Positions 4,506 through 21,460 of a stretch of DNA of 64,000 nt are shown piece by piece. The stretch comes from Escherichia coli. Its GTDB lineage: Bacteria > Pseudomonadota > Gammaproteobacteria > Enterobacterales > Enterobacteriaceae. A program made the translations under genes and the position numbers. The notes below the pieces were generated by a model, which made no database searches, had not been told where the DNA came from, and saw only the letters and a list, made by a program, of their open reading frames with translations. Within the stretch, counting starts at the first letter, position 1. Each line of letters begins with the position of its first letter. The stretch lies in the NCBI RefSeq assembly GCF_016026235.1, contig NZ_CP065613.1; one strand, given 5' to 3'.

Positions 4506-4670
4506 GATGGCAGCCTCGATAGTCAGTTTAAATAACTCACCACCAGAGGTAGCAATCTCATGGGTGGTGAGACGCACAGGGTTGCTACAACCGGTGACTA
4601 CCGAAACCGGCCAGCCTTGCGGCTGCCCTGCACGCCCCACCATAATCTGAATGTGGCTGTGCTTGACGCA

Positions 4671-4694
4671 TAAAAAAACCGCCTGAGCGCGGTT
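4671..4694 (-). terminator. Intrinsic terminator (minus strand)
   Basis: Stem aaccgc/gcggtt with 6-nt loop followed by a 7-A run on plus strand (U-run on minus transcript). Confidence 0.45.
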
Positions 4695-4821
4695 ATGCGC
4701 AGTAGTCATCGTCGGGGTAGCAATCCCGGCCCCCGTTTTATGAGGTGCAGGTGCACTATAATTCCACCCGTTCTGGTTTTCAATAGCTACATTCAACATT
4801 TTCTCTCACCTTTCATCACCG

Positions 4822-9630: not shown

Positions 9631-9777
9631 TTAAATTTAGCACTGTTAAAAATTTAATCCTTAACCGGAGGGATTTCTGCACCCTCAAATCATCAGGAGA
9701 CCGCCCGAAAGGGCGGGGAGCAGTCACACATCTGTTTCCGATAGCCCCGTTCTAATGCTACACTCTTTGATATTTTT

Positions 9778-10464
9778 ATGACCCCAATAAACATATTTAT
9801 GACAGTTGCTGATTTCAAACGGCCCAAATTGGAGCTCCCAAACGGGGCAAACAAACTACTACTGCACTCTTGCTGTGCTCCATGTTCCGGTGAGGTGATG
9901 GAGGCGCTTCAGGCCTCGGGAATCGACTACACCATCTTTTTCTACAACCCGAACATTCATCCTCAGAAAGAGTATTTAATTCGTAAGGATGAGAATATTC
10001 GCTTTGCTGAACAACACGGCGTGCCGTTTATTGATGCTGATTACGACACAGACAACTGGTTTGAACGAGCCAAAGGAATGGAATGGGAGCCCGAACGAGG
10101 GATCCGTTGCACCATGTGTTTTGACATGCGTTTTGAGCGGACAGCGCTGTACGCCGCTGAAAATGGTTTCAGTGTGATCAGCAGTTCACTGGGCATTTCA
10201 CGCTGGAAAAATATGCAGCAGGTTAACGACTGTGGGCGGCGAGCCGTCGCGCATTATCCGGGCATGGTGTACTGGGATTATAACTGGCGCAAGCAGGGCG
10301 GCTCGTCCCGTATGATTGAAATCAGCAAGCGCGAAAAATTCTATCAGCAGGAATATTGTGGCTGTGTGTATTCTCTGCGCGATACCAATCTACACCGCAA
10401 ATCTCAGGGACGCCCTCTTATCAAAATTGGTCAACTCCACTACGGTAAAGAAGAGAAGGAGTGA
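9778..10464 (+). CDS. QueH-like (DUF208) epoxyqueuosine-reductase family protein
   Basis: 228 aa; motifs [11 protein letters not shown] and CGC recalled as typical of QueH/DUF208. Confidence 0.65.
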
Positions 10465-10691
10465 TTTTATGGGGCACCTTTCTGATTGATTTCATATTGG
10501 CGAGGTAAGTAGAATGACTGCGGGTGCTTGAGGCTATCTGCTTCAGGCATGAACACCAAAAGGCAGATAGAGAAAAGCCCCAGTTAACATTACGCGTCCG
10601 GCAAGACGCTTAACATTAATCTGAGGCCAATTTCATGCTTTGCACATGTAGGTTAGCCTCTTACATGCCGAAAGGCAAGGAGAAGCAGGCT

Positions 10692-10847
10692 ATGAAGCAG
10701 CAAAAGGCGATGTTAATCGCCCTGATCGTCATCTGTTTAACCGTCATAGTGACGGCACTGGTAACGAGGAAAGACCTCTGTGAGGTACGAATCCGAACCG
10801 GCCAGACGGAGGTCGCTGTCTTCGTAGACTACGAATCCAGGAAGTAA
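10692..10847 (+). CDS. hok: Hok/Gef-family type I toxin
   Basis: 51 aa MKQQKAMLIALIVICLTVIVTALVTRKDLCEVRIRTGQTEVAVF, near-canonical Hok; in-frame upstream extension from 10635 may be mok-like. Confidence 0.8.
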   Translation: MKQQKAMLIALIVICLTVIVTALVTRKDLCEVRIRTGQTEVAVFVDYESRK

Positions 10848-10924
10848 GAGTGACCGGGCGGGGAGCTGATCCCATCCCCGCCCACCTCTGATGTGTCAGG
10901 CATCCTCAACGCACCCGCACTTAA

Positions 10925-10967
10925 CCCGCCCATCGCTGTGATCTCTCAGCGTTTCGGCGGGTTTTTT
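10925..10967 (+). terminator. Intrinsic terminator downstream of hok
   Basis: Nested GC stems (cccgcc...ggcggg) followed by TTTTTT. Confidence 0.45.
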
Positions 10968-13052: not shown

Positions 13053-13129
13053 GGCCCTTTAGCTCAGTTGGTCAGAGCGAGCGACTCATAATCGCCAGGT
13101 CGCTGGTTCAAGTCCAGCAAGGGCCACCA
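13053..13129 (+). tRNA. tRNA-Ile2 (anticodon CAU; could also be read as Met)
   Basis: Hand-folded cloverleaf; anticodon loop ctCATaa; close to E. coli ileX-type from memory; ends CCA. Confidence 0.8.
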
Positions 13130-13130
13130 A

Positions 13131-13207
13131 CCACCACTAGCTCATCCGGATAGAGCATCAACCTTCTAAGTTGACGGTGCGAGGTTCGAGTCCTCGGTGG
13201 TGGGCCA
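13131..13207 (+). tRNA. tRNA-Arg (anticodon UCU)
   Basis: Acceptor ccaccac/gtggtgg, anticodon loop ctTCTaa, T-arm ggttcgagtcc, 3' GCCA. Confidence 0.75.
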
Positions 13208-13209
13208 GC

Positions 13210-13285
<76 letters not shown>

Positions 13286-13288
13286 TAT

Positions 13289-13363
<75 letters not shown>

Positions 13364-19602: not shown

Positions 19603-20236
19603 CAGTATCACGGAAATTATTGCGGCGCTGGAGCGTTACAGTGAAATCATCACCCCCTGGGCGACAAAGGTCGCGGAAAACTTTACTGCGGACCTAACCC
19701 GGCAGAACGAGAAAGTTTGGCGGCAACACAGCAAGAACATCAGTCGCGAGCTCCGCAATCTTGTGGAAAGCGCTCCTGTGGGCCAGGTGATGCAATCCAT
19801 CATCGCCGAACAGGTCAAGTACATCAAATCTCTGCCTCTCGAGGCCGCAGACAGGGTGTACGACATCCAGAACAAAGCGATAGAGGCTGTTGTCACCGGT
19901 GGTCGGGCGGAGCAGTTTGCTAAAGAGATTGCATCTACCGGCGATGTTGCTAAGTCTAGGGCCGATCTGATTGCCCGAACGGAACTGGGAAGAGCAACGG
20001 GCGCGCTGGATATGGCCCGAGCGATAGCTATTGGCTCGGATGGTTATATTTGGCGTACAGCCGATGATGGCGATGTCCGAGATTCCCACGATCACATGAA
20101 AGGTAAATTCGTCCGCTGGGATTCACCTCCAACTTTGGACGGCATGACCGGCCACGCGGGCGAGCTGCCAAACTGCCGCTGCTATAAAGAGATCGTGTTT
20201 GTTCGCGTTCCATTCGCAATGAAAAGGGCAGCATAA
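19454..20236 (+). CDS. Head morphogenesis protein (Mu F / SPP1 gp7-like)
   Basis: 260 aa ORF; no in-frame ATG downstream of portal stop, so it overlaps portal 3' end by ~149 bp in another frame. Confidence 0.6.
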   Translation: MPKMKRRPASANLMTNRRSRQAEIRYRTSLRRIARAVGDIVNGRYDGSNDSITEIIAALERYSEIITPWATKVAENFTADLTRQNEKVWRQHSKNISRELRNLVESAPVGQVMQSIIAEQVKYIKSLPLEAADRVYDIQNKAIEAVVTGGRAEQFAKEIASTGDVAKSRADLIARTELGRATGALDMARAIAIGSDGYIWRTADDGDVRDSHDHMKGKFVRWDSPPTLDGMTGHAGELPNCRCYKEIVFVRVPFAMKRAA

Positions 20237-20239
20237 CCC

Positions 20240-21460
20240 ATGAAATACTTTTTTGAGACCAGGCTCGGGGAAACCCGATACCGCCTGGCTGACGGCTCGT
20301 TGCTGTGCAAAGACGTGCCGATAGGACGAACAGGTAAGCAGCTCTATGGTGCTGATGACCTGCCAAAACTGAAACCCGATAAGTTCGGTGAAATAGTCGT
20401 CACGCGTTCTCCTGAGCAGGTATTCCATCCGGCCACGCTTGCCTCATTCGAAGGGATGAGCATCACGATCCTGCATCCTGAAGATGAAAACGGGAATGTG
20501 CGGCTGGTAAATCCCGAGAACTGGAAAGAGCTTGCTGTCGGGCACCTCCAGAATGTCCGGCGCGGGACGGGTGAGCAGTCTGATTTGATGCTGGCTGACC
20601 TTATCGTCAAAGACGAAAGCGCCATTCAGCTTATCGAAGATGGCCTGCGCGAAGTGTCGTGCGGCTATGACGCGGAGTACGAGCAGACCGAGCCAGGTAA
20701 AGCCGAGCAGGTCGATATTACCGGAAACCATGTGGCTCTTGTCCCTAAAGGCAGAGCCGGAAATCGTTGTGCAATTGGAGACAGAGACACAATGGCAAAT
20801 CAAAAGAAAAACTGGTGGAACCGCATGCGTGCGGCCATCAAGACAGGAGATGCCGACACCATGAACGAACTGGTGGAGTCGGCTCCCGCATCGGTTACAG
20901 GAGATGAGGGGGATTTGCCGCAGGGCGTTAATCTCAACATCAACCTGTCCCCGCAGCAACCACTACCGGACAAAGCACCAGAGATGGGCGGAGATCCAAC
21001 CGGCGACAGTGATGATGACCTCAAAACATTACTGAAAGCCCTGCTGGCTAAGCTGGAAAGAAATGCCACGGGCGATAACGATAATAAGCCTGACGATAAT
21101 CCGACCGGTGACGGCGAGGACGATGAAGAGGAAACCACGATTACTGGTGACTCAGCCTGGCGTGCCGAAGTTATCGTTCCGGGTATCGATCTGAGCCGTA
21201 AGATGAAACCGACCGCGTTCAAACGCGAGGTTCTGGCTTCTGCTGACAAAACGCTGGTTCGCCAGATAGTCGGTGATGCGGATATCCGCAAATTACCGAA
21301 ACAATCGGTCGACATGGCGTTTAATGCCGTGTCTGAGGTTGCCAAAGGGCGAAACACCCGCGCCACCACCGGCGATGCACAGCGCCTAAACATGGGCATG
21401 ACCAGTATCGCTTCCCTGAACAAACAAAACGCTGAATTCTGGGCAAGCCGTAAAGGGTAA
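20240..21460 (+). CDS. Scaffold/prohead-protease-like protein
   Basis: 406 aa; acidic repeat-rich C-terminal half typical of scaffolds. Confidence 0.5.
   Translation: MKYFFETRLGETRYRLADGSLLCKDVPIGRTGKQLYGADDLPKLKPDKFGEIVVTRSPEQVFHPATLASFEGMSITILHPEDENGNVRLVNPENWKELAVGHLQNVRRGTGEQSDLMLADLIVKDESAIQLIEDGLREVSCGYDAEYEQTEPGKAEQVDITGNHVALVPKGRAGNRCAIGDRDTMANQKKNWWNRMRAAIKTGDADTMNELVESAPASVTGDEGDLPQGVNLNINLSPQQPLPDKAPEMGGDPTGDSDDDLKTLLKALLAKLERNATGDNDNKPDDNPTGDGEDDEEETTITGDSAWRAEVIVPGIDLSRKMKPTAFKREVLASADKTLVRQIVGDADIRKLPKQSVDMAFNAVSEVAKGRNTRATTGDAQRLNMGMTSIASLNKQNAEFWASRKG

Follow-up and report, generated by a model that had tools for sequence, protein, structure and literature searches.

Escherichia coli and Shigella do not synthesize cobalamin de novo. 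The last step of queuosine synthesis, the conversion of oQ34 to Q34 on the tRNA, is shared by two enzymes, QueG and QueH (PMC5372724). QueG is a cobalamin- and [4Fe-4S]-dependent enzyme (PMC5175355), while QueH is the cobamide-independent alternative (PMC6461909). For E. coli and Salmonella, Frey et al. (1988, as cited in later papers) reportedly first described the reduction of oQ as dependent on cobamide. Phages are known to use the preQ0/7-deazaguanine pathway for the modification of their DNA, and a survey of viral 7-deazaguanine genes reported no homologues of QueA, QueG or QueH in the viruses analysed (PMC6884629). Comparable viral loci are clusters of the Dpd type, e.g., in phage 9g, in which DpdA is found together with FolE, QueD, QueE and QueC. 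A further point of reference is given by the morons of lambdoid phages, such as lom and bor of lambda.

The window analysed here is a stretch of 64,000 nucleotides of E. coli DNA, for which the original prediction had proposed a QueH-like, Cys-rich protein. The CCAPC, CTMC and CGC motifs of this protein are all present, and a Pfam profile search places it firmly in the proposed family, with a match to PF02677 (QueH, formerly DUF208; IPR003828) at an E-value of 2.3e-65 that covers model positions 1-174 of 175. The sequence of T. maritima QueH (PDB 7lc5) is matched at an E-value of 5.3e-22 with all six cysteines aligned. In the numbering of the 228-residue reading frame, the CCAPC motif (9871-9885, plus strand) holds C32, C33 and C36, the CxxC motif CTMC (10108-10119, plus strand) C111 and C114, and the CGC motif (10357-10365, plus strand) C194 and C196. 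The six family cysteines C32, C33, C111, C114, C194 and C196 align with cysteines of the T. maritima enzyme and are invariant in both protein alignments. The prediction had also pointed to the conserved cysteine ligands, every one of which is retained, in the alignments as well as in the 80 closest IMG/VR copies.

C32 and C33 correspond to C9 and C10 of the T. maritima enzyme, whereas C36 takes the position of D13, a residue for which a D13N crystal structure of T. maritima QueH exists among the PDB matches. The CCAPC form is also found in QueH of Acinetobacter, Ligilactobacillus salivarius and Bacillus thuringiensis and in all gammaproteobacterial orthologues aligned. The aspartate at the D13 position is thus not family-wide, and the window protein represents the common form and the T. 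maritima protein the variant. A. baylyi and L. salivarius are reportedly the genetically studied cases of QueH, in the work of Zallot et al. from 2017. Compared to the T. maritima enzyme, the window protein has in addition a basic C-terminal tail of about 25 residues (10378-10461, plus strand), which the alignment shows to be kept in gammaproteobacterial QueH and missing from T. maritima. A role of this tail in tRNA binding is only a guess.

An AF2 model based on a 15-sequence alignment reached a pLDDT of 86.4 and a pTM of 0.84. When compared to the PDB with Foldseek, its five best matches were all QueH entries with target-normalised TM-scores of 0.87-0.90, and the superposition with 7lc5 gave a TM-score of 0.90 at an rmsd of 1.6 Å. 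The QueH fold predicted by the model is adenine-nucleotide alpha-hydrolase-like. The likeness to T. maritima QueH (7lc5, 7lc7, 9deu) hence comprises the full-length profile match, the six cysteines and the predicted fold, and the identity of the protein as QueH, a cobalamin-independent epoxyqueuosine reductase, is well supported. Within this known family, whose structure has been solved, the protein is unremarkable, and public annotation already calls it QueH. PGAP names the same gene 'epoxyqueuosine reductase QueH', the same RefSeq name is given among the listed E. coli records, and no NCBIfam model matches the window protein.

The maximal open reading frame extends from 9778 to 10464 on the plus strand and comprises 228 codons, of which the first seven are not conserved. 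We compared the upstream sequences of the window, of phage HannyBb, of another prophage copy from E. coli and of IncF plasmids of Salmonella and Klebsiella, and later those of 85 loci on prophages and IncF plasmids, among which 20 upstream sequences are distinct. ATG 9799 is invariant throughout the 85 loci, whereas the plasmid copies from Salmonella and Klebsiella have ATT in place of ATG 9778. The codons at 9778-9798 vary freely: between the window and HannyBb three of the seven carry non-synonymous changes, compared to three in the next 215. Cellular QueH orthologues begin at or just after the position of 9799, and the PGAP annotation of a near-identical genome places the start at 9799 as well. 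As judged from these comparisons, the true start of queH is most probably ATG 9799, and the gene would thus span 9799-10464 and encode 221 residues plus the stop codon. The coordinates 9778-10464 that had been proposed for the gene therefore delimit the 228-codon frame correctly, but probably place its start 21 nt too far upstream.

The comparison also exposed an annotation problem. PHROG 3217, listed as 'unknown function', covers only residues 41-228 (window 9898-10464) and begins at the internal Met41. Many phage annotations thus use an internal methionine and drop the metal-binding CCAPC motif, and this loss affects PHROG 3217 and several phage records alike.

Upstream of the gene, a pattern of the form TT(T/C)CCGATAG-N10-ATGCTACACT is found at 9735-9764 in front of every copy (85 loci, 20 distinct upstream sequences). 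It resembles a sigma-70 promoter of the extended -10 type with a -35-like element TTTCCG/TTCCGA (9735-9741), a TG dinucleotide (9756-9757), a -10 element TACACT (9759-9764) and a spacer of 17-18 nt; the extended -10 element TGcTACACT (9756-9764) is invariant. The pattern occurs nowhere else in the window (0 matches expected by chance), and Salmonella and Klebsiella IncFII plasmids share the upstream block with its invariant TTCCGATAG...TGCTACACT. TGCTACACT is found once more in front of a chromosomal queH of an Erwinia-like genome, about 31 nt from its ATG; there the -35 element differs (TTGGAG, at 17 nt) and the remaining upstream sequence is unrelated to the cassette. A generic scan for promoters and terminators detected no terminator for queH and left the conserved promoter, whose core hexamers score about 7 out of 12, below its threshold. 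From consensus and conservation, we regard 9735-9764 (plus strand) as the putative promoter of queH, with a weak -35 and an extended -10 element.

The putative promoter is followed by a short, AT-rich leader (9765-9798, plus strand) with no significant structure (z -0.25), which contains the non-conserved in-frame ATG 9778. Inspection of this leader revealed no Shine-Dalgarno sequence before ATG 9799. It ends in ATTTATG (TCTATG in the Erwinia-like gene), and chromosomal orthologues share such a leader. Further upstream lies a GC-rich hairpin, CCGCCC-GAAA-GGGCGG (9701-9716, plus strand), which lacks a U-tract and folds at -16.6 kcal/mol with a z-score of -2.7. The equivalent hairpin in HannyBb has a z-score of -3.8, and in other copies of the cassette this position is taken by another hairpin, GTCTGCTTT..AAAGCAGAC. 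After the stop codon a short hairpin is present in the plasmid and HannyBb copies, whereas the window copy runs directly into hok/sok.

From 2669 to about 54600, the window matches the E. coli FDAARGOS_943 chromosome at 99.7-100% identity, except for IS copies that the window lacks. According to the annotation of that genome, the queH prophage is lambdoid and is integrated in the gal-mod region, with ybhA and pgl on either side. The gene order reads cI-like/Cro/YdaT, O-like, DnaC-like YdaV, DUF977, a hypothetical gene, queH, hokD, a further hypothetical gene, DUF1367, DUF1364 and DUF1133, followed by four tRNA genes, lysis genes, and head and tail genes. This order bears out the proposed location between the replication and nin modules, with O-like and YdaV upstream and DUF1367, DUF1364 and DUF1133 downstream of queH. 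The gene had furthermore been described as standing alone, and no que, tgt or dpd gene was indeed found beside it, either in the colinear annotation (2669 to about 54600) or in PHROG scans elsewhere. The same annotation and PHROG scans of the remaining open reading frames yielded no tgt/dpdA and no preQ0-synthesis genes (FolE, QueC, QueD, QueE) in the window. The four tRNA genes (13053-13363, plus strand) come after the DUF1133 gene, possibly a Q-like antiterminator, and have the anticodons CAU (Met according to ARAGORN, Ile according to PGAP), UCU (Arg), UGU (Thr) and UCC (Gly). None of them is a queuosine-modified tRNA.

The distal end of the prophage carries a 608-residue open reading frame for an ipaH-type (ipaHb) T3SS effector E3 ligase (38760-40586, minus strand; colinear annotation), and the prophage of the reference genome contains copies of IS600, IS1 and IS2 and several pseudogenes. 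The ipaH gene, together with these IS elements and pseudogenes in the reference, points to a Shigella or EIEC-like host. The closest genome record is labelled E. coli, despite these signs of Shigella/EIEC.

Several other elements were recorded in the window. Rfam places a C4 antisense RNA (4560-4647) and isrK (4672-4748) on the minus strand in the early-left region, near a gene for a Rha-family regulator. A second, lambda-like prophage with int/xis occupies about 50300-64000 on the minus strand and adjoins ybhC; it contains exo/bet/gam (54883-56644), a lambda cIII thermoregulator RNA element (56951-57009), an N-like gene (57790-58170) and a cI-like repressor gene (60080-60814). The early region of this second prophage differs from the reference genome over about 54600-61500. 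Further Rfam matches at gathering level are sRNA-Xcc1 (52311-52399, minus strand, 68 bits) and naRNA4 (48741-48811, plus strand), the latter just above threshold at 60.4 bits.

In 65 of 80 IMG/VR loci, the left edge of the homology to the window falls at 9700-9740. On the right side, a block starting at about 9725 ends at about 10920-10940, just past hok/sok, in 44 of the 80. The hok/sok type I toxin-antitoxin locus downstream of queH extends over 10522-10847 on the plus strand and consists of sok (Rfam RF01794, 10522-10697, 117 bits) and the hokD coding sequence (10692-10847); a mok-like frame starts at 10635 within it. In prophages hok/sok usually travels with queH, whereas the plasmid copies of queH come without hok. 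These plasmid copies are located in IncFII cargo regions, beside IS elements and TonB-like or fecCE genes. In the two contexts inspected, one each from Klebsiella and Salmonella IncFII plasmids, queH lies near iron-uptake genes (a TonB-family protein; fecC/fecE), a link to iron that is anecdotal. Base composition over the cassette showed no anomaly. Judging from the sequence comparisons, queH appears to form a single-gene cassette of about 0.75 kb, made up of promoter and gene, and together with hok/sok a block of about 1.2 kb in prophages; in Enterobacteriaceae, the cassette probably passes between lambdoid prophages and plasmids of the IncF type.

Of 5426 complete E. coli genomes, 994 carry queH at a nucleotide identity of at least 90%, with few exceptions as a single copy on the chromosome, and E. 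coli B is one of the strains with a prophage queH. By tblastn, QueH was found in 302 plasmid records; Klebsiella accounts for 99 of them and Escherichia for 67, and many matches from E. coli are truncated remnants. These partial queH-like remnants are unannotated, cover residues of about 107-220 at 41-61% identity and occur on many E. coli F-type plasmids, e.g., on the IncFIA/FIB plasmid pE110019_65 (3501-3836), where the remnant adjoins RepB and a tyrosine recombinase. The carriers of mobile queH are hence lambdoid prophages in E. coli and Shigella and IncF plasmids in Klebsiella and Salmonella. Within IMG/VR, 165 contigs, mostly prophage-derived, contain a QueH relative. In a curated phage collection, a close copy was found only in phage HannyBb, where it is annotated 'hypothetical'. 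We rejected the other tblastn matches to phage collections as proof of wide phage carriage, as they are unannotated faecal fragments or chromosomal-looking records. One record, 'Acinetobacter phage MD-2021a' (CAKLQH020000001.1, 328 kb), has soxR, cynX and tadA as neighbours of QueH and is probably not a phage genome; its queH is annotated 'putative prophage protein' with an internal start.

Over all gammaproteobacterial QueH proteins compared, identity to the window protein is 78-90%, with 86% for Erwinia, 84% for Providencia and Proteus, 80% for Photorhabdus and 78% each for Pantoea, Lysobacter and Acinetobacter. In the two contexts inspected, the chromosomal orthologues reside in housekeeping (core) neighbourhoods, namely mltF-purL-queH-glrK-glrR-glnB in an Erwinia-like genome and tmcA-DUF441-queH in Providencia. 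Among prophage and plasmid copies, dN/dS values calculated after Nei-Gojobori over 215 colinear codons were 0.02-0.09, at dS values from 0.02 to about 1.5. The low dN/dS at high dS shows strong, long-term purifying selection on the QueH protein during its residence on mobile elements. All of the 80 closest IMG/VR copies are intact and represent only four protein variants, each with all cysteines kept. Intact queH is also found in IS-ridden or defective prophages, i.e., in the Shigella-like element and in a Qin-like remnant of E. coli B, where its neighbours are dicB, dicC, rem and hokD. The closest genome copy, in E. coli FDAARGOS_943 (20022-20687), is 99.9% identical at the nucleotide level and has a Glu to Gly exchange in the near-invariant RFERTA motif; the window QueH retains this Glu.

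A look at the host queG had been recommended with the prediction. Examined for E. coli genomes generally, queG is present in 5425 of 5426 complete genomes, so that QueG is core in E. coli, in contrast to the accessory queH (994 of 5426). In E. coli B, queG adjoins nnr and coexists with the prophage queH, which departs from the typical pattern of QueH replacing QueG where the latter is missing. Replacement of QueG is the usual pattern of QueH rather than a defining one. In the founding QueH study, A. baylyi is said to have been described with both QueG and QueH. Compared to known QueH enzymes, the window gene thus differs in being carried by a lambdoid prophage and by plasmids, not at a core locus of the chromosome, and in its coexistence with QueG. 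With QueG it shares the predicted reaction and the same four tRNAs (PMC5372724). The two proteins are however non-homologous: QueG has two [4Fe-4S] clusters and cobalamin, whereas the window QueH has no cobalamin domain.

The locus resembles the morons of lambdoid phages, including lom and bor of lambda and ipaH on the same prophage, in that a single gene with its own promoter-like element is placed between phage modules, with sharp mosaic boundaries, variable presence among related prophages and retention in defective ones. The boundaries are discrete, and the extended -10 element of the predicted promoter is found in phage, plasmid and chromosomal contexts. It departs from them in its cargo, a tRNA-modification enzyme of the housekeeping type instead of a surface or virulence protein, and the window copy of queH has no clear intrinsic terminator. 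With the Dpd-type phage clusters, queH shares the wider queuosine/7-deazaguanine biochemistry (PMC6884629). The signature genes of these clusters have no counterpart in the window, and QueH acts after the base has been inserted into the tRNA.

The reading we favour, at a probability of about 0.75, is that a functional, cellular-type queH has been captured as a mobile cassette and, as a moron or accessory gene, provides the lysogen with B12-independent completion of queuosine. The iron-sulfur, cobalamin-independent QueH would reduce oQ to Q at position 34 of the host tRNA-Asp, tRNA-Asn, tRNA-His and tRNA-Tyr. Expression would take place from its own promoter in the lysogen, with additional read-through from the early operon after induction, and queH would be a moron or accessory metabolic gene and not a part of phage DNA metabolism. 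Since QueG needs cobalamin and de novo synthesis is absent from E. coli and Shigella, the cassette would make the completion of Q independent of B12. What we infer is that the enzyme is catalytically active, that the lysogen transcribes queH from the promoter of the cassette, and that the lysogen benefits when B12 is scarce. Any such benefit would require a physiological difference between oQ and Q and is uncertain. As for its function, the original prediction had offered either an alteration of host tRNA modification or a nucleic-acid modification system. The former is favoured by the 78-86% identity to housekeeping QueH, whereas the latter is disfavoured by the lack of DpdA, TGT and preQ0 genes in the window and by the presence of the gene in plasmid cargo.

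The early rightward operon shares its strand with queH, whose expression might therefore come largely once the prophage has been induced. One rival reading overlaps with the favoured one and differs only in timing and beneficiary; in it, queH serves the lytic cycle and is transcribed as a delayed-early gene after induction, tuning the translation of late genes through the conversion of oQ to Q. The strand and position shared with the nin-region genes downstream of the replication genes would fit, as would the upstream hairpin, which without a U-tract is unlikely to stop read-through, and the four phage tRNA genes, which represent an investment in translation. However, no phage tRNA is a substrate for Q, the identical cassette with its promoter resides in plasmid cargo regions that have no lytic cycle, and queH is intact in defective prophages unable to grow lytically. 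We therefore consider a primarily lytic role unlikely. That queH is instead a functionless passenger, carried along with hok/sok or by mosaic recombination and either unexpressed or redundant with QueG, is more improbable still. Its tight linkage to hok/sok, the QueG already present in the host, the truncated queH-like remnants on E. coli IncFIB plasmids and the exchange of a near-invariant Glu for Gly in the closest genome copy could be taken as signs of such a state, but dN/dS stays at 0.02-0.09 despite dS values above 1 among mobile copies, 80 of 80 closest viral copies are intact, the promoter is invariant while the flanks diverge, and plasmid copies do without hok.

Early and nin regions often contain counter-defence genes. 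This general knowledge, and the preQ0/7-deazaguanine modification of DNA known from phages (PMC6884629), would be compatible with a QueH recruited to another substrate or role, i.e., DNA 7-deazaguanine or epoxide reduction, or an anti-defence function in the early region. A role in DNA modification is not supported, because the window contains no tgt, dpdA or preQ0 genes: neither DpdA/TGT-like nor FolE/QueC/D/E genes accompany queH. PADLOC returned no match for QueH and only generic AAA matches for its neighbours, and Hutinet et al. saw no QueH in the DNA-modifying phages they analysed (PMC6884629). With 78-86% identity to housekeeping orthologues and a very low dN/dS, there is also hardly any scope for a changed substrate. 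For want of partner genes and of a match to a defence model we rejected both the DNA-modification and the defence readings, and regard recruitment to another role as highly improbable, the least probable of the explanations weighed here.

In the searchable literature, we found no discussion of QueH on lambdoid prophages or plasmids of hosts that also have a core QueG. The present locus adds a tRNA-modification enzyme to the accessory genes of temperate phages, although none of the viruses surveyed earlier was reported to carry QueH (PMC6884629). Tentatively, mobile elements may be spreading a B12-independent last step of queuosine synthesis among Enterobacteriaceae whose core QueG depends on B12, a proposal that we hold to be possible though not probable. 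If it is true, about 1 in 5 E. coli strains, including E. coli B and not K-12, would have Q in place of oQ in niches that are poor in B12, aerobic or intracellular, and the Q or oQ status of a strain could measurably affect decoding and fitness. For Shigella, where Q (through tgt) is needed for full translation of VirF, queH could affect virulence (PMC5041530). This setting is suggestive and does not imply that oQ and Q differ for VirF.

If the captured QueH is active, the oQ or Q state of tRNA would vary between strains of E. coli, Shigella and Klebsiella, as a trait that phages and plasmids carry. A difference between laboratory lineages would be predicted as well, as E. coli B has queH and no sign of a K-12 queH was found here. 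The queH cassette also offers a natural means of probing for a functional difference between oQ and Q. The main value of the finding lies in a simple prediction, namely that the maturation of queuosine may be strain-dependent and B12-independent.
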